In this document: positions 921 through 32,567 of the stretch, in pieces
How positions within the stretch are numbered: position 1 is the stretch's first letter
How the letters are laid out: each line of letters starts with the position of its first letter
Assembly (NCBI GenBank): GCA_043801595.1
Contig: JAZDLW010000017.1
Span: 1 to 37,373 of the forward strand
From: Candidatus Aenigmatarchaeota archaeon
GTDB lineage: Archaea; Aenigmatarchaeota; Aenigmatarchaeia; JACPZZ01
Reading direction: 5' to 3'
Length of the DNA: 37,373 bases
The notes under the pieces: model-generated
Database searches by the model: none
The model's input: only the letters and a program-made list of their open reading frames with translations
What the model was told of the DNA's origin: nothing
Made by a program: the position numbers and the translations under genes

Positions 921-1046
921 GGGCCGGTAGATCAACGGTAGATCGCCACATTGGCACAAGCCTTTTCTTTCATAAGGAAAAGCCTTGAGGGAAAAGAAAC
1001 GCTTACGACATTGTGGAGGCTTCGGGTTCGAATCCCGACCGGTCCA
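921..1046 (+). tRNA. tRNA-Ala(GGC) with a 54-nt intron at 37/38 (957-1010)
   Basis: Acceptor GGGCCGG/CCGGTCC-A with G3:U70; CCACA-TT-GGC-A|intron|T-TGTGG; T-arm TCGGG-TTCGAAT-CCCGA. Relaxed BHB with inner helix AAGC/GCTT. Confidence 0.93.
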
Positions 1047-1282: not shown

Positions 1283-2425
1283 ATGGAAAGTTTTGCGGTA
1301 TTACTTATAATGTCCTTGCTTTTTCTTGGAATCCTGTTCCTTGGAACCTCGTTAATGGAAGGCATTCCGGGCGGAAATGTCGTGCAAAAAGTTTCGAAAA
1401 TAGACGTAGCATCAATGCCTCAGTTCTTCCTCGGATTCACGAAAGAGGACAAGGCCAGAACAATAAACTACGACTCATTTGTGATAGGCGCAAACTCCTC
1501 AATGAATATACGCGAAGTTTTGGTGCAGGACATCGCGAACGGACTGTTTTCGTACAAAGATTTGTCCCTAGAAATAAACCTTCAGCCAGCCACTGTAACG
1601 GAAGCGGTTGCGGGAAGCGTTTCTTTGGAAATAACCAGCACGAACAACTACGGCAACCTTGCGGTTTCGTGGAATGGAAAGGAGTATTACAATGACAAGC
1701 CAGCGGCTGGGAAGATTGATGTAAACATACCGAAAGAGGCGATAAAGGAATCGAACACGCTAATCGTCAAATCAACAGGGCCGGGTGCACGGTTCTGGGC
1801 GTCGTCTTTCTACGCCTTGCAAAATGTGCATTTTGACATAATAACAAAATCGAAGAGAAGTCTGTTCTTCGATGTATTTCCAGAAGAGCTCCCGACGTGG
1901 AGCGCGGGTGTGTTGAACTTCAGAAGAGCGGATTATTCTTCTGCCGATGGAACATTAAAAGCCTCGATAAACGGGAAGGCTATATACGGCAGGTTCCCAA
2001 AACAAACCGATTCGATTGAGATAGGCCCGTCAGATATAAGGTCTGGCAAAAACGTCATAACTCTGGAAAGCGACAGCACATTCTCGTTAAGCAATGTTTT
2101 CTTGAACGTGTTCCTCTGGCGCAACAGGACGCCCGGTGTCTCGACGTCATTCAAACTTAACGGGGACGATTTGTTCCTTTTGAACAGCAGCAAGTTCTCG
2201 GGCGTTGTCGAGATAAACGTGGGTTCTGTGCTAAAGCCTGCAGCCATCGAAGTCCGCTTCAACAGCAGCAGGGGAATTAAATCGATTTTCATAACCGAGT
2301 TGAAAGATACCATTGATGCGGAATTCGGCGCAGACCAGGTCAACGAAGGCAACAACACGATGACACTGCTGTCCGACGGCTCAATGGAAATAAAATCCGT
2401 GGACATATTCCTCCAGGGTGGATGA
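1283..2425 (+). CDS. N-terminally anchored, beta-rich extracellular protein
   Basis: 380 aa; hydrophobic N-terminus; three repeated beta-sandwich-like segments ending '(K/G).N.(L/I/M).(L/V).S'; ATGA overlap with the next gene. Confidence 0.75.
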   Translation: MESFAVLLIMSLLFLGILFLGTSLMEGIPGGNVVQKVSKIDVASMPQFFLGFTKEDKARTINYDSFVIGANSSMNIREVLVQDIANGLFSYKDLSLEINLQPATVTEAVAGSVSLEITSTNNYGNLAVSWNGKEYYNDKPAAGKIDVNIPKEAIKESNTLIVKSTGPGARFWASSFYALQNVHFDIITKSKRSLFFDVFPEELPTWSAGVLNFRRADYSSADGTLKASINGKAIYGRFPKQTDSIEIGPSDIRSGKNVITLESDSTFSLSNVFLNVFLWRNRTPGVSTSFKLNGDDLFLLNSSKFSGVVEINVGSVLKPAAIEVRFNSSRGIKSIFITELKDTIDAEFGADQVNEGNNTMTLLSDGSMEIKSVDIFLQGG

Positions 2426-3750
2426 TTGTGTCTTTAAAGGACGAGCTGATAAAGAAGGCTGCGGAAAAAATGCAGGCAAATGAAAAGCCGGCGCCGCAGC
2501 AATACTCTCCGGGAAAGAGCTGGAAAAGCTTAGTGTACAGATTGCTCGCCGCTGCATTGTACTTTGTCGTGCTGTCTTTATTCAGGTTCTGGACAACGGG
2601 TGTTTTTCTGATAATATTTTTCGTAATCATAGGGCTTTACATTTTTGCGTACGGCCCGATTGACGCGACGGGTTTCGTGACGTGGGCTGTCATAATAATG
2701 GTAATATTCGGAGGCGGAGGCTGGTTATTGGTTTACAGCCCGTGGAAATCCACGATAACAGCCTATTACAACAACGCACTAAGCAGTGTGAACAAAGTCG
2801 CAGAAGCGTCGCAAAACTTTTTCTCGCAGATGGACTGTCTCACCAATCCGCTGTTAGAAAGATGCTACAAGTCAGGAACTACGACTGTGCAAAAAAGCAG
2901 GAACGGACTTGAGTTAACAAGCTTATCGGCAGAGCCGTCGGTTATGGTCGGGCAAATCGCCCGCGTGTTTGCGGCTGTTAAAAATCAGGGCGACTCCAAC
3001 GCAACGGTTAAAAAAATGAGGATAATCGCTGGCGAAGGAAAGGACGCGAAAATAATAAACAAGATCGATTGTCCGGAATGCGCAAACGGCATAGTTGGCG
3101 AAAAGATAATGCCAAATTCCAAACGGGACCTGACATCGGAAATAACAATACCGTGCCAAAAAATATCATCATACCCATTCACGTTAAACATGGAATACGA
3201 ATACGACGCAAGCGCTGCTCTACCGGTAGATGTAATGAACTCGCATGACTACAACACAAAAACAGCGAACAAGGACGTGTTTTTGGCTCAGCCGACCGTC
3301 GATTCATCAAGCGGGCCTGTCCAAACAAGCATTTCCGTGGGAATAGAAGGCTACCAACCGTTAAAGGGCGGGACAAAAAACATAGTGTTCGCAAGATTGA
3401 CCAACCTTGGCACAGGATCATTCAAGCTGAATAACGCGAAATTATCGTTTGCGCCATTCAGTCTGACAAACTGCAAGGTTAACGGCGATTCCACCGATCC
3501 TACGAAAATCAACGACCCGTCAGGAAGATCTTACGGCAATGAAAAATTCATCACAATAAGCTGCGACACAAGCGTAAACAACGTCGAGGGAACGAAAAGG
3601 TTCGTTGCAACAGTCGAGGCGTCGTACCTGTATAACGTAAACAAAACTGCTTCCGCGGATGTCGACCAATCGGGATTTGACGCGTGCAACGCAGCGACGA
3701 CGACAACAATCGCGACAACAACCACGACTTCGGTACCGCCGACGCCTTAA
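2422..3750 (+). CDS. Multi-TM-anchored surface protein with two Ig-like domains (paralog of 4584 and 5501)
   Basis: About 3 TM helices, Cys pairs, motifs YEYEY / SSGPVQTSI / TNLGTG / ASYLY, and a Thr-rich tail. Confidence 0.8.
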   Translation: MIVSLKDELIKKAAEKMQANEKPAPQQYSPGKSWKSLVYRLLAAALYFVVLSLFRFWTTGVFLIIFFVIIGLYIFAYGPIDATGFVTWAVIIMVIFGGGGWLLVYSPWKSTITAYYNNALSSVNKVAEASQNFFSQMDCLTNPLLERCYKSGTTTVQKSRNGLELTSLSAEPSVMVGQIARVFAAVKNQGDSNATVKKMRIIAGEGKDAKIINKIDCPECANGIVGEKIMPNSKRDLTSEITIPCQKISSYPFTLNMEYEYDASAALPVDVMNSHDYNTKTANKDVFLAQPTVDSSSGPVQTSISVGIEGYQPLKGGTKNIVFARLTNLGTGSFKLNNAKLSFAPFSLTNCKVNGDSTDPTKINDPSGRSYGNEKFITISCDTSVNNVEGTKRFVATVEASYLYNVNKTASADVDQSGFDACNAATTTTIATTTTTSVPPTP

Positions 3751-4550
3751 GCAAAAACAGCCAACCGAAGCGCGTCCCTTAACCCGGGCGCAAGACCCAA
3801 TACGAGAATAACAAGCTTGATAAATGTCCGGAAATTTTTGTCCTTTATGTCCTTGTCGAGGATCAGGATAACCGCGCCTATGATCAGGAGCTTCAGCGGA
3901 AACATCGCGACAGGCCCGAATAAACCCATTAAAAATGTCGGGACCATGTGCTGCTCTCCATAGTTAAAAAACGATATTGCGACGAATGTTGACGATGCGT
4001 CGAGCATATGCGCGGCGAGAACAGCGAAATTTTCTTTTGTGAGTATTTTTGCAAACTTCATTCCCGCAAGATAAATCACGGCGTTTGAAATCGCAAACAA
4101 TGAGAGGACATACACAAGTCCCGCAAGGTTGTGTGCGTTGGATAGTATGAAAATTATTATAACAACTGCAGGCGCAAGTGCAATGAACGACAGCGTTTTC
4201 CAGTACGCGATTTTCATTTCCTTTTCCAAGATTTTGGAGATTACAAACGACACGAGGAACAGAAAACCCATCAAAACGTAAATGGAAGGCGTGTCAAAGA
4301 TAATTTTCGGGAGTATTCCCATGTCTTTGAGAACATGCAACGACGATGCTAACACCGCAAACGACGAGAATGCCAGCGCAAAGTTTTTATCAATGGTTAC
4401 GCGCTTTTTTAGGACCTTTTCATATAAAATGTATGCAACAAAAAATAGAACGATAGCATACACAACCGTGTTCACGACATTGTATTTGCCTGTTTGGTTA
4501 ACAAGCGGATCGATAAAATAGTTGTTTGCAATGTCCTCGAACAAGCCCAT
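3747..4550 (-). CDS. DUF63 family archaeal membrane protein
   Basis: Motifs YNVVNTVVY, HMLDASSTFVA..F.YGEQH, LGLAPGLRD; polytopic. Confidence 0.88.
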   Translation of the reverse strand: MGLFEDIANNYFIDPLVNQTGKYNVVNTVVYAIVLFFVAYILYEKVLKKRVTIDKNFALAFSSFAVLASSLHVLKDMGILPKIIFDTPSIYVLMGFLFLVSFVISKILEKEMKIAYWKTLSFIALAPAVVIIIFILSNAHNLAGLVYVLSLFAISNAVIYLAGMKFAKILTKENFAVLAAHMLDASSTFVAISFFNYGEQHMVPTFLMGLFGPVAMFPLKLLIIGAVILILDKDIKDKNFRTFIKLVILVLGLAPGLRDALRLAVFA

Positions 4551-4583
4551 AGTTTAATATCCTGAAGCAAGATTAATCTATTT

Positions 4584-5441
4584 ATGAAACACGTCATGGC
4601 CGTTGTTGCTATTGTGCTCGTGGTTCTGGTTTCCGGCTGTACGGATAACAACACAACGCAGCCGATGAAAACCAATGAAATCGTTGTTTTGGAAAACACA
4701 GAGGCTGTTCCGAACGAGGTGAAACCGGAAAGGAATTTCGTGCTTAACGGATTTGTTACCAATAACGCCGAGGAAAAAGTCGGCAATGTCCGCGTAGAGC
4801 TTTCAGACTATTGCTCATCCGTTTTTGACGTTGAAAAGACGACGTGCGCGCTGACGTCATCGGACGGCTATTCAGCGTGCGCATTCCAGCTTGGCATCGG
4901 GGCGTCGAAAAAGTTCCAGTGGAACTTAAAAGCGCCCACGGCTGAAAGAACAGCGAACCGCAATTTCGACTGCAGCATGATCGTTAAAACAAACTACTCA
5001 TACGTTTCCCGCGGATCTGTCGGAGTAATATTCGCAAACAATGCGGAGATAGCTGCGCGCGAGGCGGGGTTGTCGTCAGTTACGAGCGACGGCCCTGTAA
5101 AGACGTACATAACAATAGAATCTCCGCAACCTATTGGAAAGGACGAGATTTTTGACGTAAAGATCGTAATCAGGAACGAAGGTGCGGGAGAGATCGAGGG
5201 CGGAGGGATAACGAAGCCGAATTTCAAACTAGCCGCCCCGTCGGAGCTTACGGTGAACTGTGACACGCCGCTATTTATCGACTTGTCCGGAACAAAAAAA
5301 GAATCCGACCCTATATTCTGTACAATCAAAGCGCCGGACTCGCTGCCGCCGAGAGTTACGAAATACCTGACAGCCGAGTTATCGTATGCTTACAAATTTA
5401 CGAGCGTCCTGCCTGTAAAACTGGTTGTGGAGAAGCCGTAG
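4584..5441 (+). CDS. Predicted lipoprotein with two Ig-like domains
   Basis: Lipobox LVSGC; motifs NYSY / SDGPVKTYI / RNEGAG / LSYAY. Confidence 0.8.
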   Translation: MKHVMAVVAIVLVVLVSGCTDNNTTQPMKTNEIVVLENTEAVPNEVKPERNFVLNGFVTNNAEEKVGNVRVELSDYCSSVFDVEKTTCALTSSDGYSACAFQLGIGASKKFQWNLKAPTAERTANRNFDCSMIVKTNYSYVSRGSVGVIFANNAEIAAREAGLSSVTSDGPVKTYITIESPQPIGKDEIFDVKIVIRNEGAGEIEGGGITKPNFKLAAPSELTVNCDTPLFIDLSGTKKESDPIFCTIKAPDSLPPRVTKYLTAELSYAYKFTSVLPVKLVVEKP

Positions 5442-5500
5442 CAGATTTAAATAAACACGCGGGGAAACTAATTAATAGAAAGTTTTAAGGCGTGCGATAA

Positions 5501-6871
5501 ATGAAACTGGCAATACTCGGCATTGTTTTGGCTATAATCGTATCAGGCTGCACGACTACTGATGCGTCCACTGGCAGCAACGGTGGTTCTGTTGTTATCA
5601 AATCTTTTGTTGCGGACAGCACTGCAATAAGGGGAAACGACAAAGTCTCGCTTTCTGCGGAGATAGTTAACACAGGCGACTCGAAAGCAACAGCCGTCAA
5701 AGTTCAATTGTTGGAATTGGATGTCAAATGTGATGTTCCATCCTGCGATGCGACCAACACACAATGGGGTTTGCAAAGCGGTAAAAAGAGCGATAGTATA
5801 TCCGACCTGAGAATAAACCAGCGCGGTGAAGAGGCCATACCGAAACAATATTCTTGGAGGGTGCAGGCACCACAATTACCGGTCGGCATAGTCCAGAATT
5901 ACCAGGCTACCGCAAGGGTATCTTTCGGTTATTCAACAACCACGATAAAACAGATCCAACTCGTCACATTTGATGAATACCAGAGGCTAAAGGACAAGGG
6001 CGAAACGCTGCCCGTAACTACGGCGCAACCGTCGAACGGCCCGCTGGGCGTTGATGTGCGCGTAAACGAGCCTGTAAAGATTGAAGGCGGTTCCGAGACA
6101 TTCATGCTAGTTGTTGCTGTAACAAACCTTGCTGGCGGAAACACGTTCCTTGACAATGACCCGAACGCTGTTACAAAGTGGAATCTAGCAAAGCTTACGC
6201 TTGCACTGCCTTCGGGCCTAAGCATGGTTGACAGCACAGGCGATTGCGTCGCTTTGACTGGTAGTGGATTAAACATAGAACTTTCAAAGGGCAAGGACTT
6301 CAAGATTGCGTGTGAGGTAAGGGCAACCTCTCCTCTCGCTGCTGTCTCAAAGACTGTTGTTGTAAGGGCTGATTATGGGTATTTCGTTGATGCCAAACTT
6401 GCAACTCCAATAGAGGTGACCGGACGCGAGAATTATGTTACTCCTACAGGAACGCCGACTGGCGGCGGGGCTACGACAACAACAGTAGTCGGAGGCACGA
6501 GTGCGGACACAGAAGCGCCCGCAGCTGTTTCAAGTGCAAATTTCCAGGTTTCGGCGGCGATTAAAGACCCGAACACTGCAGGGAAGTGGATTATTTCCGC
6601 AATAACGTTCACACAACCTTCTGATAATAAGGGGGTAACAGCGTTTGATATAATAGTGGACAAAGTACAGCCAACAGCAGATTGCGGCAATTGCGCAAGC
6701 CTTGCAAGAATAACATCGCCTGCTGTGAAAAATACCGGCGACCTGATAACTGCGGGTCCTGCAAACAACCTTGACCAGCAGTCAACGTACTACGTAGTTG
6801 TCCGTGCAAAGGATGCTGCAGGAAACATAGGGCCGATTGCGCAGAAAACCGTACAGACAGGACAATACTAG
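5501..6871 (+). CDS. Predicted lipoprotein: two Ig-like domains, Thr/Gly linker, C-terminal fibronectin type III-like domain
   Basis: Lipobox IVSGC; SNGPLGVDV / TNLAGG / ADYGY; linker TPTGTPTGGGATTTT; FN3-like DTEAP...SDNKGV...STYYVVVRAKDAAGN. Confidence 0.82.
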   Translation: MKLAILGIVLAIIVSGCTTTDASTGSNGGSVVIKSFVADSTAIRGNDKVSLSAEIVNTGDSKATAVKVQLLELDVKCDVPSCDATNTQWGLQSGKKSDSISDLRINQRGEEAIPKQYSWRVQAPQLPVGIVQNYQATARVSFGYSTTTIKQIQLVTFDEYQRLKDKGETLPVTTAQPSNGPLGVDVRVNEPVKIEGGSETFMLVVAVTNLAGGNTFLDNDPNAVTKWNLAKLTLALPSGLSMVDSTGDCVALTGSGLNIELSKGKDFKIACEVRATSPLAAVSKTVVVRADYGYFVDAKLATPIEVTGRENYVTPTGTPTGGGATTTTVVGGTSADTEAPAAVSSANFQVSAAIKDPNTAGKWIISAITFTQPSDNKGVTAFDIIVDKVQPTADCGNCASLARITSPAVKNTGDLITAGPANNLDQQSTYYVVVRAKDAAGNIGPIAQKTVQTGQY

Positions 6872-6878
6872 GCTGGAT

Positions 6879-8147
6879 TTATCGGGAAAACTCTTTCAAA
6901 ACTTTTTGTCCGCTTTTTTGGGGCAGCAATTCCTCATTACCGAACAACGGAACACCGTAAACGCCGTCGTAACCGGGTTTATACTTCAAACCGCTGCGCG
7001 ATTTGATTATTGCGGCCGCGATCCTTTCGTGCGTGACCTTTTTCAGCTCTTCAAAGGAGGCGTCCATTAGAACATTCAGCTCTGTTCCGAACCTTGAAAC
7101 AATTTTATCGTGCTCTTCGGTCACTTTTTTCGAATAAAGCGCGCTCACGCCGGTGACGTGTGATATTATTTCGTACAGCGGCAGCAATGTCTTGAACGGT
7201 ATTGCGGCTTCCGGAACAAAACCCTCGGGTCGATCTGCGAGCTGCTCTACGCGATTTAAAACGCCTATGGTAAGCATCCGCTTGCAGCGCGGGCAGATTC
7301 CATTCATTTTATTCGTTTCCTCCGGATCAAAAGAAACATTGCAATCTCGGTGGCCGTCTACGTGGTATTTTCCGTAATTCGGGTCGACCTCTATCGTATA
7401 GAGGAATTTTTTATTGTCTTTGTTTTTGATAGCGCCGAAAATTTCTTTGTAGTCAGGCGCTTCGAGATCAAAAACATTCGCCTCGCGTCCGAGCCGCCAT
7501 GCCCACGGCGAATGCGAGTCGGAATTCGAAACCAGCGCAAAATCATCGAGGCTTGAAACGCGCCAGTTCATCGCAGGGTCCGAAGACAGGCCTGTCTCAA
7601 CAGCGAATATACGCCTTGTCTGGTCTTCGAAACATTCTTTGACAGAATCAAAGCCGGACATCGAACCGAGCATCGAAAACCAAGGTGTCCATATGTGCGC
7701 TGGTATGATGAAAACGTTCTTTGATATCGACGACATCATCTCGACGAATTCAGGACAGCTTATTTTTGTCAATATCGGCCTGCCGTCAGACGCGAGATTC
7801 CCATATTTGTCCAGCTTCTCATTGATCTGATCAACCGTTTCGAAATCTGGCGCGAATATGATGTTGTGGATTTTTTTCGTGTGCTCCTTGACCCTGTAAA
7901 TCAGAGACACTTCCGATGAAAGCATGAACATGGTTTTGGTTTTTTTATCCGAGAATAATCCCGCATCGTCGATTTTTTCCAGCGATGATTTCAATTCGCG
8001 CAGCTGCAACGGGTGGGTGAAATCGCCGGTTCCGAGAATGTTAAGGCCTTTTATCTCGGCGAACCTGCCGAGGTTCGCTATGTTCATCTGCGGCGAAGTG
8101 GCGCGGCTGTATTTTGAGTGCGAGTGCAAGTCTGCAATGATCTGCAT
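6879..8147 (-). CDS. endoQ: Endonuclease Q (PHP family, deaminated-base repair)
   Basis: Start corrected to ATG 8147 (MQIIADLHSHSKYS). Motifs GTGDFTHP, PAHIWTPWFS, ETGLSSDP, SNSDSHS, GKYH.DGHR.C, CPRC, PGYDGVYG. Confidence 0.92.
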   Translation of the reverse strand: MQIIADLHSHSKYSRATSPQMNIANLGRFAEIKGLNILGTGDFTHPLQLRELKSSLEKIDDAGLFSDKKTKTMFMLSSEVSLIYRVKEHTKKIHNIIFAPDFETVDQINEKLDKYGNLASDGRPILTKISCPEFVEMMSSISKNVFIIPAHIWTPWFSMLGSMSGFDSVKECFEDQTRRIFAVETGLSSDPAMNWRVSSLDDFALVSNSDSHSPWAWRLGREANVFDLEAPDYKEIFGAIKNKDNKKFLYTIEVDPNYGKYHVDGHRDCNVSFDPEETNKMNGICPRCKRMLTIGVLNRVEQLADRPEGFVPEAAIPFKTLLPLYEIISHVTGVSALYSKKVTEEHDKIVSRFGTELNVLMDASFEELKKVTHERIAAAIIKSRSGLKYKPGYDGVYGVPLFGNEELLPQKSGQKVLKEFSR

Positions 8148-8181
8148 ATTGTATAACAAACTCTGCTGGGTTAAAAATGAG

Positions 8182-8317
8182 TGGGCCCGACCGGATTCGA
8201 ACCGGCGACCGTGCCGTTCTTTTACCAAGAATTACGGCGTCTACGCAGCTTAGTTTCGCAAGCAGAAGCTTGCGGGCCTTATAAGACCGTCGCTCTACCA
8301 AGCTGAGCTACAGGCCC
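8182..8317 (-). tRNA. tRNA-Ile(TAT) with two introns: 40 nt at 38/39 (8278-8239) and 22 nt at 44/45 (8232-8211)
   Basis: Removing both introns gives a 74-nt cloverleaf: GGGCCTG TA GCTC AGCTTGGTA GAGC G ACGGT CT TAT AA GCCGT AGGTC GCCGG TTCGAAT CCGGT CGGGCCC A. Both introns have BHB-type junctions. Confidence 0.88.
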
Positions 8318-8450: not shown

Positions 8451-9338
8451 ATGAGAAAGGATCTCATCAATGCTGTTGAAGACGAATTTATTAACGCGGA
8501 TTACCGAGTCGCATTATCGAGAGGTTCGTTTGACGTTGTCGCGGCCGGTAACAATTCAATACTAGTAAAGGTTTTATCAAACATCGACTCTGCCACAGAG
8601 ACGCAGGCAAAAAGCCTTTTGACCGCAGCCCGTTCGATCGATGCGAAGCCGATGTTCGTGGGAACGAAAACGCGCAAAGGCGAGATGGAGGAACTGGTAT
8701 ACCATCGCTTTGGGGTGCCCGCAATCGCGATAAACAGCCTGCAGGACATAATCGCGAACAGGAAAATATTCAGCCACGCGGGAAAGGGCGGAAGCGTTGT
8801 TTACATTGACGGCGCAAAGATGCGGGCGAACCGAAAAAAACTCGGATTATCGCTTGGCGACGTGTCGCGCGAGGTCGGAGTTTCGAGAACGTCGATAATA
8901 TACTATGAAAACAACGGGCGGGCGCGTCCGGAGATTGTGGAAAAAATCGAGTGTTTACTCGGCTCGCCTGTCGCGATCAACGAACTGCACGCAGCGAATG
9001 CCGAAACTTACGAAAAACCGAAAGGGCTCGAGGCTGTTGTTTCGAGAAAATTAAGCAGGATCGGGTTTTCGACAATGCAAATTTCAAAAGCTGTGTTCAA
9101 CCTTGTCGCGAGAAGCGAAAACGTAATACTTGCCAACGTGTCCGAAAACAACAACACATTCCGCAAAGATGCCCAGATGCTTCACGATATATCCGAGATA
9201 ACCGGAAAGCGCGCGGTGTTCGTGTCGCAAAAATTTTTCAGAAGAAGCGTTGAAGGCGTGCCGGTAATAATGAGAAGCGAGCTCGAAGAAATAAACGAAA
9301 TCGAGGCGCTGGAAGAGCTGATAGAGGACCGGATTTAA
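8451..9338 (+). CDS. Archaeal HTH transcriptional regulator (COG1395/PRK04140-like)
   Basis: FDVVA...VKVLSNIDS, VYHRFGVPAI, central Xre-type HTH (RKKLGLSLGDVSREVGVSRTSIIYYE), C-terminal VEGVPVI...EL. Confidence 0.9.
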   Translation: MRKDLINAVEDEFINADYRVALSRGSFDVVAAGNNSILVKVLSNIDSATETQAKSLLTAARSIDAKPMFVGTKTRKGEMEELVYHRFGVPAIAINSLQDIIANRKIFSHAGKGGSVVYIDGAKMRANRKKLGLSLGDVSREVGVSRTSIIYYENNGRARPEIVEKIECLLGSPVAINELHAANAETYEKPKGLEAVVSRKLSRIGFSTMQISKAVFNLVARSENVILANVSENNNTFRKDAQMLHDISEITGKRAVFVSQKFFRRSVEGVPVIMRSELEEINEIEALEELIEDRI

Positions 9339-14589: not shown

Positions 14590-15264
14590 GTGAAATCAGG
14601 ATTTTTTAAAGGTCAGAGCGAAGTAATCACTTTTGTTTTACTTGGCGGTGTGATTGTTTCACTGGTCGGCGCTGCGTACATGTGGGGCGCGCCGCTGACA
14701 GAGAAACGAAGCTCGATGGCAGAAGCGGAAAGCGTGCAGGCATTTTTTAATGTCCTAAATTCGAAGATAACGGACATGTCGCAGACGTGCTCTGGAACGT
14801 GCACAGAAACGATAACGCTCACGCCGAAAGGCGTTTTCAGCGTTTTCAACAATGAAAGGTATTATCTTTCCCGGCCCGCTCCCGGAGGCACTGAGCATAA
14901 CGAATACAACAACAGCGTTACGCTTACAACGAACGCTGCGAGAAGCATATACGCGCTTGACAGATGGATAGGCTTGAATACCGGAAACGTCGGCAAGGTT
15001 GCAACCTTTGGCGAGGACGACGGCGTGATAATGATCAGGATGGTAAAGAATGCTGCGGGTGACCACAACGCTTTATACAGGTTGTGGTACAGGGAAATCG
15101 ATACTCTTAAAAAAGGCTACTTGGTCGAACTGGAAACGGGCAATGTGCAAAACGCAACTGCAGGCAAGATGACAATAACGTACGACGGAAGATTCGTGGT
15201 CGCGAACGGCGCGGCAAACGGAAAGGACCTAGAAATAAGCAGGATAAAAGTCGACTTCGCATAA
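14590..15264 (+). CDS. Minor pilin-like protein
   Basis: FFKG|QSEVITFVLLGGVIVSLVGAAYMWG class III-like signal. Confidence 0.82.
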   Translation: MKSGFFKGQSEVITFVLLGGVIVSLVGAAYMWGAPLTEKRSSMAEAESVQAFFNVLNSKITDMSQTCSGTCTETITLTPKGVFSVFNNERYYLSRPAPGGTEHNEYNNSVTLTTNAARSIYALDRWIGLNTGNVGKVATFGEDDGVIMIRMVKNAAGDHNALYRLWYREIDTLKKGYLVELETGNVQNATAGKMTITYDGRFVVANGAANGKDLEISRIKVDFA

Positions 15265-15292
15265 ACTTTCTTAGAAAGAAAGTTTAATCAAA
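15262..15292 (+). repeat. Family B palindrome (TAAACTT..AAGTTTAATCAA)
   Basis: TAAACTTTCTT-AGA-AAGAAAGTTTA-ATCAAA; its first TAA is the stop codon of the upstream gene. Confidence 0.8.
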
Positions 15293-15347
15293 GAAGCGAG
15301 AGTTTAACCAAAACAACCTTTTTTGTATGATTTGACAAGTTAGTGTT

Positions 15348-15782
15348 ATGAAGGGACAATACCAGATCTTTGAACAGGTAATAATATTCGGAATAGGACT
15401 GATAATTCTAACAAGCGTTTTCGCGATTTTCAACCTGCTAGGCGAGCAGGTAAACGTCATAGCGATACACGACAATTTCAAGGATGTCGGTCTGGTCGCA
15501 GCTTCAAACATCATAGAGCTCTACGGACAGGGAAAATACTTTTACAATGCGACTGCCAAGCTTTATGTGCCAAAGGTCATAGGAAACCGTTTGTACGAAT
15601 TGAGCATTGACAAAAATGGGGTTCACGTTAACGCAACAGACTCCGGTATATACAGGTCAATAATAGGCTTGTACAACCTGAACGGAACTGTTTTAAAACT
15701 AAGGGGAGTTGAACTGAGCATGCAATCGCCCCTGAAACTCATATTTTACAATTACACCAAAGAAGTTGTGCTCCAAAGATGA
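15348..15782 (+). CDS. Minor pilin-like protein
   Basis: MKG|QYQIFEQVIIFGIGLIIL class III-like signal. Confidence 0.82.
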   Translation: MKGQYQIFEQVIIFGIGLIILTSVFAIFNLLGEQVNVIAIHDNFKDVGLVAASNIIELYGQGKYFYNATAKLYVPKVIGNRLYELSIDKNGVHVNATDSGIYRSIIGLYNLNGTVLKLRGVELSMQSPLKLIFYNYTKEVVLQR

Positions 15783-15835
15783 CAGGCGTCGTTTTTTAAG
15801 TTCATGGACTGCCAATAGATTATAATTGGGATAAT

Positions 15836-18295
15836 TTGACAGCAACTTTAAACGCTATCATGAGAAGGGCGGCTGCGAAAAAAGCCGCCTCGACTGTCGT
15901 CGACAATGAAATTGCCAGCGAAACGAATATAACAAAAAGCGTGGGCAAAGTAATGCTTAAGGTAGCAGAAGCAAAAAAAGACGGGGCGAAGGATTACACA
16001 ATACCAAAGGCGAAAGTGAAACTCGTTGTAAAAAGACTGTTCGGGGTGTCGAAGAACGTAAAAATCGGCCTTCCGGTTGAGAATATTGTAAAAAACCCGC
16101 ACGTGCTCAAACGAACAGCTGAAAAATACGGCGTATCGGAAGCGTCAATAGAGGATTTGTACGAACGGATAAGAAGGCTCGAAGAAAACTCGCTCAAAGC
16201 GAGCCTTAGGCCAGAGGACATAATATCGCTTCGCAACGAAATTTCATCAATGAAAACGATGCCTGATTTTGGAAGGCTCGGAGACATAGAAGAAGTGCGG
16301 CAAAGCCTTGCGTCGATTGAAAGCAAGATAGGCGACGCGCCGGAATCGACGGACAAATTAAGGGACGCGGAGATAGAACGCGACAGTCTGATAAAATCCA
16401 AGGAAGAACTTGAGAAAAAATATTATAAACGGGAGGTTGATGCGGACACATTCAAAAAAATAATGCAGGATTACGAGCAGAAACTCATACAGACAGAGCA
16501 AAAGATAAAGAGTTACAAACAGCTCGCGCCGAGCGAGCCAAGGTTTGACATGAACCGCGTTTTTGGCAAGTATTCAAGGGGCTACAAGGCTGTCTTCTTC
16601 CCGCAAAACGCACAGCCGCAATGGGCGATGCAAGCCCAGATGGTTGCTCCGCAGCAGTTTTCTCAAATGCAACAAACCGTACAACCGCAACAACGCGTTG
16701 CCGAACCGCAAATAATTGTTCCAAAAACCGTAATCGACGGAATAAGCATACCACAGAAAGAACCGAAACCGTTTGAAGTTAATGAGGATGAAGCGGAGGA
16801 CATGATGAAAATAAACACGATCTATCCGCTCATTCCCAGAAAGCCCGCGAAGGGCGAGATAGTTTACGCGTACACCAACATAAAATGGGATTCGCAGGAA
16901 AATGCGCTGATTTACAACGTGTTCGAACCAGTGCTCACGCCGGAAGAGAAACGAATACTTGCAAGAAGCAAGGACATTCTCGAGGAAAGATTAAACATAG
17001 ACCTACGAAAGCTGAGGAAAGCGGAAGCTGTGAGTTACCTGATGCGCCAAACGGACGATGTGTTTTCCGTAATGGGAATCAAACTTGGCACTAAAAGGGT
17101 GGATGTCTTAAAATATTATATCAAAAGGGATTTCGCCGGGCTTGAAAGAATCGAGCCGCTGATGAACGATCCGAACATAGAAGACATAAGCTGCGACGGG
17201 ACGAATATCCCGTTGTTCATATTCCACAAAAATCCGATGATAGGATCGATAAGGACGAATATAAAATTCCAGGACCAGAAATCACTGGACACGTTTGCAA
17301 TAAAACTGTCCCAAAGAGCGGGAAAGAACATATCCATGGCTGAGCCTTTGCTCGATGGCATACTGGCGGACGGTTCGCGTGTGCAAGCCACGTTAGGCAC
17401 GGACATAGCGATGCGGGGGTCGAATTTCACAATAAGAAAATTTACAGACGTGCCCCTGACGCCGATAGATCTCATAAACTTCGGAACGGTAAATGCAACG
17501 TCGCTTGCTTATTTGTGGATCGCGGTCGAGAACGGAAAATCGGTTCTTATCGGCGGTTCGACGGCGTCCGGAAAGACTACGATGCTGAATGTGCTGTCGC
17601 TTTTCATAAAACCCAACAAAAAGATTGTCAGTATAGAGGACACGCCCGAATTGCGTTTACCGCATCCACACTGGGTACCCGAGGTTGCGAGAACGGCCAT
17701 ATCAGATAACGAGGGCAAAAAGATCGGAGAGGTCGATATGTTCGACCTTTTGAAGGAAAGCCTGAGGCAGAGGCCGGACTATATTATCGTAGGCGAGGTG
17801 AGAGGCAAAGAGGCGTATGTGCTGTTCCAGCAGATTGCATCCGGCCACCCGGGAATGTCGACAATACACGCGGACAGCATCTCGAAACTCGTAGATCGTT
17901 TAACGACGCCTCCGATAAACCTGCCCGGAAATCTCATACAAAATCTTGACATATTGGTTTTTACTGACACAACCTCGTTCAAGAACAAAAACGTCAGAAA
18001 AGTGGACACAATAATGGAAATAGTCGGTTATGAGAACGGCGCGCCTATCGGCAATCTAGTTTTCAAGTGGGATCCTGCCAAAAAATATCTGAAAGCGGTC
18101 GGCAATAGTGCGGTGCTTAAAAAAATAGCGTACTCAAGCAACACTTCCGAGACTGCGATGCAGGAAGAGGTCAGTAACAGGGTGAAGGTGCTGGAATGGA
18201 TGCAGGAAAAGGGAATAAGCGACTTTGCTTCTGTTGCAAAAGTATTCAGCATGTACAACTCCGACCCGGAAAAAGTGCTTGGAATGGCCGAGTGA
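15836..18295 (+). CDS. Type IV pilus assembly ATPase (PilB/TadA/FlaI family) with long N-terminal extension
   Basis: DPNIEDISCDG, Walker A GSTASGKTT, SIEDTPEL, LRQRPDYIIVGEVRG, SGHPGMSTIHA. Confidence 0.95.
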   Translation: MTATLNAIMRRAAAKKAASTVVDNEIASETNITKSVGKVMLKVAEAKKDGAKDYTIPKAKVKLVVKRLFGVSKNVKIGLPVENIVKNPHVLKRTAEKYGVSEASIEDLYERIRRLEENSLKASLRPEDIISLRNEISSMKTMPDFGRLGDIEEVRQSLASIESKIGDAPESTDKLRDAEIERDSLIKSKEELEKKYYKREVDADTFKKIMQDYEQKLIQTEQKIKSYKQLAPSEPRFDMNRVFGKYSRGYKAVFFPQNAQPQWAMQAQMVAPQQFSQMQQTVQPQQRVAEPQIIVPKTVIDGISIPQKEPKPFEVNEDEAEDMMKINTIYPLIPRKPAKGEIVYAYTNIKWDSQENALIYNVFEPVLTPEEKRILARSKDILEERLNIDLRKLRKAEAVSYLMRQTDDVFSVMGIKLGTKRVDVLKYYIKRDFAGLERIEPLMNDPNIEDISCDGTNIPLFIFHKNPMIGSIRTNIKFQDQKSLDTFAIKLSQRAGKNISMAEPLLDGILADGSRVQATLGTDIAMRGSNFTIRKFTDVPLTPIDLINFGTVNATSLAYLWIAVENGKSVLIGGSTASGKTTMLNVLSLFIKPNKKIVSIEDTPELRLPHPHWVPEVARTAISDNEGKKIGEVDMFDLLKESLRQRPDYIIVGEVRGKEAYVLFQQIASGHPGMSTIHADSISKLVDRLTTPPINLPGNLIQNLDILVFTDTTSFKNKNVRKVDTIMEIVGYENGAPIGNLVFKWDPAKKYLKAVGNSAVLKKIAYSSNTSETAMQEEVSNRVKVLEWMQEKGISDFASVAKVFSMYNSDPEKVLGMAE

Positions 18296-18349
18296 CAACA
18301 ACGGAAAGCTTTAGCTTTCCGTGCATAGGAAACTGGTGGGTTTCCTATG
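18296..18349 (-). repeat. Composite palindromic element (family A), inverted, two hairpins
   Basis: Minus strand reads CATAGGAAAC/GTTTCCTATG-C-ACGGAAAGC/GCTTTCCGT-TGTTG. Confidence 0.85.
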
Positions 18350-18391
18350 ACAACGCAATGCTTATTATCGACCAAAACCAACTCGTTTTAG

Positions 18392-18451
18392 TTAAACTTT
18401 TACAAAAAGTTCAATCAAATAAACTTCTTCCTAAGAAGTTTAATCAAGAAA
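18392..18451 (+). repeat. Two tandem family B palindromes
   Basis: TTAAACTTTTACAAAAAGTTCAATCAAA followed by TAAACTTCTT-CCT-AAGAAGTTTA-ATCAAGAAA. Confidence 0.8.
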
Positions 18452-18468
18452 TTGATAGGGCTGAATAA

Positions 18469-19344
18469 ATGTTAAACAAAATTGCATTCAAATATTTTGG
18501 GGCAATTGTAAAGCCTTACCTGAACCACTTCGAACCGCTGAAAGGAGACCTGCTTAAAGCCGACATGAAAATATCATTGCACGAATATGTCTCGAACATG
18601 ACGTTTCTTTCGTTCGTGACCATGCTCATAGGCTGGCCGACGCTGTCGCTGCTATTCGGGCTGGCGCTGGGTTATGCAAAGATAAGTTCAGTTGCGCTTT
18701 CGGTGACTGTATCATTTACCATGTCATTGATGCTGTGCGCCGGCGTTTTCGTATCAATGTATTATTATCCGTCTATTTCCGCGAGCAGCAGAAAAAGAAA
18801 GATAGACAATTCACTGCCGTTCGGAACAATGTACATGTCCACTATTGCGAGCTCGGGCGCGCCGCCCGCAAAAATTTTCAAGATAATATCCGAGTTCTCC
18901 GAGTTCGGAGAGCTTTCAAAGGAGGTTTCGAAAATATACACAGACACGGAAATATTCGGTATGGACATCAAGACTGCCATACAGAAAGCGGCAGAGAGAA
19001 CGCCTTCCGAGAACCTGAAGGACTTGTTGTGGGGAATGGCAACGGTCATAACAACCGGAGGAAACCTGAGCGGTTACCTCAAGGAGAAGTCGAAAATATA
19101 CATGGCAGATTTCAGGAGGAGCATAGAGGAATATTCGGAGCAGATGTCCCTCTACATCGAGATGTACATAACGCTGATAATCGTCGGTTCCGTATTTTTC
19201 CTGATACTAAGCGCGGTAATGACAGCTATAGCGCCGACAGCGTCGGTGATATCGCTCCAGTTTTTCGTAATTTTCATATTCCTTCCGTTAATTTCGGTTG
19301 GTTTCATAATGCTTTCAAAGGGCATATCCCCGACAGAGGAATAA
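18469..19344 (+). CDS. Pilus membrane platform protein (TadC/PilC, T2SS-F domain)
   Basis: YP...A..R.RKIDNSLPF...YM..IASSG, EFGELSKE, A.RTPS, TGGNL; C-terminal TM helices. Confidence 0.93.
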   Translation: MLNKIAFKYFGAIVKPYLNHFEPLKGDLLKADMKISLHEYVSNMTFLSFVTMLIGWPTLSLLFGLALGYAKISSVALSVTVSFTMSLMLCAGVFVSMYYYPSISASSRKRKIDNSLPFGTMYMSTIASSGAPPAKIFKIISEFSEFGELSKEVSKIYTDTEIFGMDIKTAIQKAAERTPSENLKDLLWGMATVITTGGNLSGYLKEKSKIYMADFRRSIEEYSEQMSLYIEMYITLIIVGSVFFLILSAVMTAIAPTASVISLQFFVIFIFLPLISVGFIMLSKGISPTEE

Positions 19345-19345
19345 G

Positions 19346-20365
19346 ATGAAAGACAAAAAACAAATTGCCGGTAAGAAACTACTGGACAATATAAAGAAAC
19401 ACTTTCCGCCGATAAATGACGAGAATGCTGTCGCCGTTTACCCGATGATCATAGCAATCGTGCTCCTGCTAATAGGAATATTTCTCGTTAAAACCGAGGA
19501 AGGAACGCCGGACATCGGTGTCATAGGAAACCTTGTTTTTCTCTCGGTGCTCGTTTTGATAGGACCCTACCTGATCAAAAAATATCTCAGGTTTATGCTG
19601 GTAAAGGACATGGAAGACAAATTTCCGTCTTTCCTGCGGGATATGGCCGAATCGCAGAGATCGGGAATGAACCTTGTGCAGGCGCTCAGCTCGGCTGCCG
19701 AGTCGAACTACGGAAGATTGACGCCCGAGATAAGGAGAATGATAAACCACTATACGTGGGGCGTGTCGTTCGAAAGAATTGTGGATATTTTTGTGAGCAG
19801 GACAAAAGATTCCGAACTAATGACAAGGTCGATGAGGATAATAAAAGAAGCGTACTCGTCCGGAGGGGACATAACCGCTACGCTAGACTCTGTTGCGAGG
19901 GACGTTGCAACGATAAAGGATGCGGAAAAGGAGAGGAAGTCCGCTCTGGGGCAGCACGTAATCATAATGTACGCGATATTTTTCATGTTTATTATCATAG
20001 TGATCGCGCTGACAAAGATACTGATACCGATGTTCGGCCAGCAATCATCCAGTTTGAGCGGTTCCGCGTCGTTCGGTTTCAGCGATCCGTGCAGGCTGTG
20101 CATCGGCTACAAGGATATCAACTGCGCTCCATGCACAGTGTACGGAACCGTGTGCAGCATGTTCGGAATGAAGTCCGGAGTCGGATGCTATTACACCGCG
20201 CTTTTCTTTTCGATGCTAATGCTGCAAGGTATTTTCGGCGGGTTGGTCGCGGGCCAGATAAGCGAAAATTCTGTCGTAAGCGGGCTGAAACACTCGATGA
20301 TAATGGCCGGCATCGGATTCGCGACGTTTAGCATACTTGTAAGAATAGGCTTCCTCGGTGTTTAG
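19346..20365 (+). CDS. Second pilus platform protein (TadB/C-like) with a Cys-rich loop
   Basis: MEDKFPSFLRDMAESQRSGM, YGRLTPEI, SGGDI, QGIFGGLVAGQI.E..V.SGLKHS. Confidence 0.93.
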   Translation: MKDKKQIAGKKLLDNIKKHFPPINDENAVAVYPMIIAIVLLLIGIFLVKTEEGTPDIGVIGNLVFLSVLVLIGPYLIKKYLRFMLVKDMEDKFPSFLRDMAESQRSGMNLVQALSSAAESNYGRLTPEIRRMINHYTWGVSFERIVDIFVSRTKDSELMTRSMRIIKEAYSSGGDITATLDSVARDVATIKDAEKERKSALGQHVIIMYAIFFMFIIIVIALTKILIPMFGQQSSSLSGSASFGFSDPCRLCIGYKDINCAPCTVYGTVCSMFGMKSGVGCYYTALFFSMLMLQGIFGGLVAGQISENSVVSGLKHSMIMAGIGFATFSILVRIGFLGV

Positions 20366-31961: not shown

Positions 31962-32567
31962 ATGGTCAAAGAAAAAAGGATTGAAGAAAACGAATACGTT
32001 GAAGACAAAAATTTTGCCGAGCTCGGCAAGGCGGAACCGCTTAAAGGCGAGCTTGTAGAGAACAGAATAATCGTTTTTTCGCATCCGATGGTGAACGAGT
32101 TTTTCGAGCACGGCTACGGAAAAATCGTGGAGAACCGCCTTGAACTTGCATTTGTTGAAGCACTCTACCTTGTTGACAAGAATAAACTCGCTGTTGCGCA
32201 CAAAGGCAGGAAGCTCGGCTTTGAAGATTTGATAAAGGCCGGCTTGGAAATAGACAAAGAGCTTCATACAACGTACACCGTTTACAAGGACCTTCGCGAA
32301 CGCGGGTTGACTGTTAAAACCGGCTATAAATTCGGATGTCATTTTCGCGTTTACGAACGAGGCGTAAAAATAAAACGCGGGCCCAAGGAAGCGCACGAAC
32401 ATACGAAATGGATCGCCCACGCTGTTGCAGAAGATTATACCTGCTCTTTTCCGGAATTGTCGCGAGCTGTGCGATTGGCGCATAACATCAGGGCAAAAAT
32501 GCTCTGGGCGATTGTCGACCAGGAAAACGACGTGACATACTATCAGATATTAAGGATACGACCCTAA
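31962..32567 (+). CDS. endA: tRNA-splicing endonuclease, catalytic unit
   Basis: L..VEALYL, VYKDLRERG..VKTGYKFG..FRVY (Tyr), EH (His), RLAHNIRAK (Lys), AIVD...DVTYY. Confidence 0.96.
   Translation: MVKEKRIEENEYVEDKNFAELGKAEPLKGELVENRIIVFSHPMVNEFFEHGYGKIVENRLELAFVEALYLVDKNKLAVAHKGRKLGFEDLIKAGLEIDKELHTTYTVYKDLRERGLTVKTGYKFGCHFRVYERGVKIKRGPKEAHEHTKWIAHAVAEDYTCSFPELSRAVRLAHNIRAKMLWAIVDQENDVTYYQILRIRP

Follow-up and report, generated by a model that had tools for sequence, protein, structure and literature searches.

A conserved, twice-interrupted tRNA-Ile(UAU) gene as the likely AUA decoder in TiaS-less Aenigmatarchaeota

A tRNA-Ile gene that encodes the anticodon UAU is conserved in the phylum Aenigmatarchaeota, in whose genomes no TiaS was found. 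Its transcript, predicted to be spliced to 74 nt, very likely decodes AUA in place of the TiaS/agmatidine system. In the standard archaeal pathway AUA is read by a tRNA-Ile2(CAU) carrying agmatidine made by TiaS, as described in PMC3575796. The gene analysed here lies on a contig of 37,373 nt, hereafter called the window, from a genome of 814 kb that is 86% complete. The features of the window that bear on the argument are collected in Table 1.

Table 1. Features at and around the tRNA-Ile(UAU) gene, given as positions in the window
Feature	Position	Strand	Basis
tRNA-Ile(UAU) gene, 136 nt, two introns	8182..8317	-	Rfam match, cloverleaf fold, orthologues
Exon 1, positions 1-38: acceptor 5' strand, D arm, anticodon stem 5' strand, anticodon loop	8279..8317	-	
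Anticodon TAT (U34-A35-U36)	8281..8283	-	Fold and orthologues
Intron 1, 40 nt, position 38/39, relaxed bulge-helix motif	8239..8278	-	
Exon 2, positions 39-44, 6 nt; U31 pairs with G39	8233..8238	-	
Intron 2, 22 nt, position 44/45, strict hBHBh' motif	8211..8232	-	
Exon 3, positions 45-73: variable loop, T arm, acceptor 3' strand, discriminator A73	8182..8210	-	
Five-T run just 3' of the tRNA, candidate archaeal terminator	8173..8177	-	Sequence
COG1395/PRK04140-like HTH protein, head-to-head with the tRNA, 133 nt away	8451..9338	+	NF003162, E 5.5e-62 (below cut-off); synteny
TIGR00375-like gene, directly downstream of the tRNA, same strand	6879..8147	-	E 7.4e-61 (below cut-off)
tRNA splicing endonuclease, single catalytic subunit, 6-residue insert	31962..32567	+	Pfam; alignments to 1a79_A and 3iey_A

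A search with the Rfam tRNA model gave a minus-strand match that spans 8182-8317 exactly (48 bits against a gathering threshold of 29, E 2e-07), with two insertions in the alignment. Removal of both introns leaves a 74-nt product, the minimum-energy structure of which is a standard cloverleaf (-30.3 kcal/mol) with a 7-nt anticodon loop, A37, A38 and A73; CCA is absent from the gene. The spliced tRNA is identical to the Ile(GAU) tRNA of the same genome at 57 of 75 positions, and to its Met tRNA at 48 of 76. Together with the junctions observed in relatives, the Rfam score and the cloverleaf bear out the original prediction of an Ile-type TAT tRNA with two introns, A37-A38 and A73. That annotation pipelines would probably miss or miscall such a gene was also foreseen correctly: ARAGORN did not detect it under default settings, and when introns were allowed it called the gene as Ser(AGA) with one intron. 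Introns can hide UAU tRNA genes from this program in Aenigmatarchaeota. A tRNA-Ala(GGC) gene with a 54-nt anticodon-loop intron (window 921-1046, plus strand) was also missed by ARAGORN default.

An exhaustive search for cloverleaf-compatible products obtained by one or two deletions from the gene returned 24 arithmetically possible products, 16 with the anticodon TAT and eight with TAG, so that the choice of junctions needed comparison with relatives. The orthologues could be parsed at 32 of 34 loci, and all 32 produce UAU-A37-A38. A complete 4-bp central helix for the cut at 38/39 is present in 22 of the 32, while the canonical 37/38 cut fits ten (four pairs in seven, three pairs in three). 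Junction 44/45 is directly visible in a member of the same genus, G004, the orthologue of which is without intron 2. The genes of four genomes of the phylum have an uninterrupted TAT anticodon loop, and in genome G201 the anticodon arm and variable loop are uninterrupted and equal to the spliced product, positions 27 to 48 being identical.

These comparisons also bear on a different parse, in which a cut at 33/34-35/36 would yield a short-armed tRNA with the anticodon UAG, specific for Leu; the Ser(AGA) call is a similar alternative. Besides the eight TAG products, this genus offers a 4-bp helix that would suit the 33/34 cut, but it is complete in only four of the 32 orthologues, lacks a flanking helix, and gives an anticodon that varies from one orthologue to the next (TAG, TAA or a non-Leu triplet). 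The ten orthologues with a 37/38 intron and the four free of a loop intron read TAT unambiguously. Furthermore, the tRNA body is of class I and Ile-like, whereas the Leu tRNAs of this genome have long variable arms. The Leu(UAG) and Ser(AGA) parses were rejected on the orthologue helices and the uninterrupted TAT loops, and we consider them extremely improbable.

Other proposals concerning intron 1 were also discarded. A 37/38 cut at a TAAG motif inside the intron would leave seven unspliceable bases, has a pair probability of 0.0, and is contradicted by a different base at that place in G004. Co-evolution of the last three bases of intron 1 with intron 2 was dismissed, as G004 has those bases without having intron 2. 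Pairing of intron 1 with the D loop over 9 bp was not supported as a conserved signal, with a shuffle p of ~0.055 here and values <0.05 in three of 19 orthologues. At 44/45 the G004 orthologue (L014) is uninterrupted; it carries a T-loop intron and a further insertion, located in the anticodon stem (5' strand). In the orthologues of G005 and G006 a T-loop intron occurs besides the introns at 38/39 and 44/45.

The motif of intron 1 consists of a 4-bp central helix over positions 33-36 (two Watson-Crick and two G·U pairs) and a 2-bp inner helix. When the precursor is folded, the central helix of intron 2 has a probability of 0.99 and its inner helix one of 0.96-0.99, with one pair at 0.21; compensatory changes in the inner helix were found in four genomes of the genus. 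The outer helix of intron 2 (probability 0.84) is built from the last 3 nt of intron 1, and cannot form once intron 1 is gone. Presence of intron 2, in turn, keeps positions 39-42 off the anticodon stem. Because intron 2 relies on the end of intron 1 for its strict motif and sequesters positions 39-42, the folding model suggests that it is likely excised before intron 1. For the cut at intron 1, the precursor free of intron 2 would have to adopt a splice-ready form with a predicted energy 12.7 kcal/mol above the minimum (5.7 in a shorter fragment). The corresponding form also failed to be the predicted minimum in all 19 orthologues examined, even those with a canonical cut (1.5-13.1 kcal/mol above), so the gap seems to reflect a limitation of the folding model. 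A set order of splicing has been described for archaeal pre-tRNAs with several introns (Sugahara 2007; Tocchini-Valentini 2009, cited in PMC3978253), the motif of the last intron forming only after removal of the other, as appears to be the case here. Unlike in the pre-tRNAs described in that source, the intron that folding places first in the order borrows the 3' end of its neighbour.

The splicing endonuclease gene in the window is the only copy found in the genome. Its 6-residue insert aligns with that of the Nanoarchaeum enzyme, and it is the likely enzyme for the cutting of both introns. In PMC5829648, where Aenigmatarchaeota are placed in DPANN, the L3 loop of single-subunit DPANN endonucleases is associated, by correlation, with disrupted tRNA genes. 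Anticodon-loop introns are present in 16 of the 34 tRNAs of this genome, and D-arm introns in others. In the sequence of events that we propose, the intron at 44/45 would be cut first, the intron at 38/39 would then be cut at its relaxed motif by the L3-type endonuclease, and IleRS would charge the spliced tRNA with Ile. The tRNA-Ile(UAU) would then read AUA, and Ile(GAU) would read AUU and AUC.

Inspection of the introns revealed a T-rich/A-rich hairpin common to several unrelated tRNA introns of this genome (G000), and a second hairpin shared by its Arg, Cys and Asp tRNA introns. The tRNA loci with hairpin-bearing introns are C13:921-1046 (C13 being the window), C21:93505-93630, C23:43368-43502, C23:126415-126534 and C23:155685-155848. 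The shared hairpins look like small mobile insertions or the result of intron transposition.

Neither TiaS domain (PF08489, PF22641) turned up in this genome, which is 86% complete, and a profile of 30 TiaS proteins gave no convincing match to it (best E 0.15). Taken alone this absence proves little, given how incomplete the genome is: the search for an initiator tRNA came up empty too. The survey was wider, however: PF22641 was found in 0 of 61 genomes of the class and PF08489 in 0 of 301 genomes of the phylum, 98 of them at least 90% complete, as against 60 of 61 genomes for PF22641 in Halobacteriota, the control phylum. The reference genome of the control phylum presumably belongs to the Halorutilales.

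A single elongator-type CAT gene was found in this genome, and its 5' end is Met-type. The elongator-type CAT pattern matched 22 of the 61 class genomes, once in each and always at a gene starting GCC or GTC (Met-type), unlike the TAT and GAT genes; as it matched only 22 of 61, interrupted Ile-CAU genes could be missed. The CAT genes of three TiaS-positive genomes share the GGGCCCG-type start of the TAT gene, and they are presumably Ile2. The agmatidine system performs the same job with a tRNA of the same type of start, but both C34 and tiaS are missing here, the base encoding position 34 being T (8283). The UAU gene may have been derived from either Ile-CAU or Ile-GAU, both having the same body type. 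The suggestion that this organism reads AUA without TiaS is supported by the domain counts, and the tally of CAT tRNAs (one here and 22 in 61 genomes) gave Met-type 5' ends throughout.

A pattern census of TAT genes over the 301 genomes of the phylum, in which the reversed pattern matched once, placed them in at least 123 genomes and most of the sampled families. Families f2 (0/9) and f4 (0/3) gave no match to the pattern, which may be explained by introns inside it. Of the description of the tRNA as rare and of UAU type, the UAU identity stands, but rarity does not hold for this lineage, TAT genes being the rule in the sampled phylum.

One could still suppose that tiaS and a tRNA-Ile2(CAU) reside in the unassembled 14% of the genome, with the TAT gene as a redundant copy or one in decay. 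The 86% completeness and the likewise missing initiator tRNA speak for such a view, which is nevertheless very improbable given that TiaS was found in none of the 301 genomes, including the 98 of high completeness. Furthermore, exon 1 is identical among the four members of the genus that have intron 2, whereas their introns vary and carry compensatory changes. The decay scenario raised with the original prediction thus found no support, the TAT gene being conserved among orthologues.

ATA is heavily used in this genome, as an Ile codon. In 779 crudely called ORFs comprising 234,199 codons, ATA was counted 9127 times (39 per 1000), which makes it the third most frequent codon. It accounts for 49% of the Ile codons in the ORFs of the genome and 53% in the window, in agreement with the earlier impression that ATA is frequent in these genes. 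When EF-1alpha was compared with 116 homologues, its 20 ATA codons aligned with Ile in 43% and with Met in 2%, and its 13 ATG codons aligned with Met in 37%. The closest EF-1alpha from a named organism shares 84% identity and carries the label Candidatus Aenigmarchaeota. An Ile(GAU) gene and an IleRS are also present in the genome. In another genome, G075, six different Ile(GAT) genes were found on six contigs of one 1.9-Mb bin, probably as a result of contamination.

The use of a UAU tRNA in place of TiaS is already published for ARMAN, Nanoarchaeum and Korarchaeum, and is here extended to a further DPANN phylum. According to Fujishima et al. 2011 (PMC3239211), ARMAN-2, -4 and -5 have a tRNA-Ile(UAU), no TiaS and no Ile-CAU. 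The ARMAN lineages (Micrarchaeota, Parvarchaeota) resemble the present case in being DPANN, in their genomic UAU anticodon, in TiaS not being found and in having an anticodon-loop intron. The intron of ARMAN-2 is 25 nt long, is located at 37/38 and was cleaved in vitro, whereas the introns here are at 38/39 and 44/45; the endonuclease of ARMAN-2 is three-unit, that of the Aenigmatarchaeota genome single-subunit (PMC3239211). Nanoarchaeum equitans and Korarchaeum cryptofilum also have a UAU gene beside Ile(GAU), interrupted by an intron in Korarchaeum (PMC6000648, PMC3895270). These are given in PMC6000648 as two isolated gains in 167 genomes, whereas most sampled families of the phylum have the gene here, and a count of 2 in 167 archaeal genomes is far too low for Aenigmatarchaeota. 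In a search limited to openly available literature, we found no publication that names Aenigmatarchaeota for UAU or TiaS-less decoding. The less ordinary features of the present system are the head-to-head COG1395 gene, the near-constant loop intron of TAT genes and the conserved U31·G39 pair.

Reading AUA without also reading AUG is a real problem for these cells, because in a haloarchaeal tRNA-Ile engineered to carry U34 this base becomes cnm5U and the tRNA binds AUG (PMC3895270), and an Elp3 gene is present in this genome. Given the rank of AUA among the codons (third in frequency) and the misreading of AUG by engineered archaeal U34 tRNAs in the same source, these cells likely solve the fidelity problem in a way that has yet to be reported from archaea. 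Among the candidate genes, the genome encodes an NcsA-like thiolase (two copies, 94% alike) and a Cbf5/TruB-type protein. The search of the 86% complete genome yielded no member of the TruA/Pus1 family (PF01416) and no TruD. TruD scored above cut-off in 20 of 41 class genomes, none of them from the family of the host, and was rejected as the U34 enzyme. The tRNA itself has a U31·G39 wobble, which is present in 26 of the 32 orthologues and, among the 34 tRNAs of this genome, in tRNA-Ile(UAU) only.

Our weakly held first choice, with close to an even chance, is that AUG would be avoided as in Mycoplasma: U34 would be left unmodified or kept from Elp3, with the weak U31·G39 pair and competition from tRNA-Met(CAU) contributing. 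Little misreading of AUG is reported for the UAU tRNAs of Mycoplasma mobile and of a Bacillus mutant, both of them unmodified (PMC3895270, PMC3575796), and the tRNA-Ile2(UAU) of M. mobile, like the one described here, replaces a modified-C system (Taniguchi et al. 2013, PMC3575796). M. mobile is a bacterium, however, in which the unmodified U34 and an adapted IleRS and ribosome were shown.

The same gene could instead depend on its intron, as in yeast. There the tRNA-Ile(UAU) intron is required for pseudouridine 34 (34/36) and keeps the Elp-type modification off (PMC6582322). By analogy, U34 would be modified before splicing, for example to pseudouridine, and Elp3 thereby blocked. As in the yeast precedent (PMC6582322), the loop intron holds the UAU anticodon in a helix, and the central helix spans position 34 at both intron sites (37/38 and 38/39). 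An intron directly follows the anticodon in 126 of 130 TAT matches, as against ~38 of 105 GAT matches and 16 of the 34 tRNAs of this genome, with the reservation that GAT interruptions were read by eye, that the TAT and GAT patterns differ and that related genomes are not independent, so the bias may reflect one old insertion. The Cbf5/TruB-type gene is compatible with such a route, but yeast needs Pus1 (PMC6582322), for which neither a TruA-family candidate nor TruD was found in this genome, and four TAT genes have no loop intron. In addition, the intronless yeast tRNA did not misread AUG in a reporter (PMC6582322). For lack of a Pus1-like gene and because of the four intron-free genes, we rank this route below the unmodified U34, as a minority possibility. 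It is unlikely that a modified U34 made by Elp3 and NcsA is what prevents AUG reading, and quite improbable that misreading is simply tolerated.

The gene facing the tRNA belongs to COG1395, and its close homologues are labelled Candidatus Aenigmarchaeota. Among the 35 TAT loci whose upstream sequence reaches 1 kb or more (five short-upstream or duplicated loci were left out), COG1395 is head-to-head with the TAT gene at 12, in eight families, with a gap of ~1.1 kb in G004. In the control phylum Halobacteriota, tiaS occupies the head-to-head place beside COG1395 at 12 of 31 tiaS loci. A separate contig search gave one locus, at which COG1395 did not adjoin tiaS. When COG1395 was compared by sequence with solved structures, only its HTH matched, the best being archaeal MBF1 (E 3.9e-07). 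A PD-(D/E)XK-HTH-PD-(D/E)XK architecture has been predicted for COG1395 (PMC1189080), a putative nucleic-acid-binding protein of archaea. An operator common to COG1395 and its divergent partner was rejected, the shared words being merely AT-rich and TATA-like (10 of 12 TAT and 7 of 12 tiaS readable loci). The same search of openly available literature found no publication on a link between tiaS and COG1395. The association may have a function, or simply go back to an ancient bidirectional promoter. A three-part AUA device, in which the near-obligatory intron would gate U34, the U31·G39 pair would form a second element and COG1395 would regulate or act on the AUA-decoder gene, is doubtful. Within it, COG1395 would stay beside whichever gene decodes AUA, tiaS in Halobacteriota and the UAU tRNA here.

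A tblastn search located the TIGR00375-like neighbour after the tRNA at nine TAT loci from three families; we take this gene to be an EndoQ-type DNA repair nuclease. Elsewhere in the genome, C3:4934-6444 and C10:1-1511 form a 94% identical duplicate with the NcsA-like gene and a Ser(CGA) tRNA near each copy, likely reflecting a mixture of strains in the bin. At 1283-6871 of the window, four ORFs (285-456 aa) gave no match in Pfam or NCBIfam. Further along, several small unannotated ORFs precede a type IV pilus-like cluster (14590-20365, plus strand) composed of DUF7289, a secretion ATPase and two T2SSF membrane proteins.
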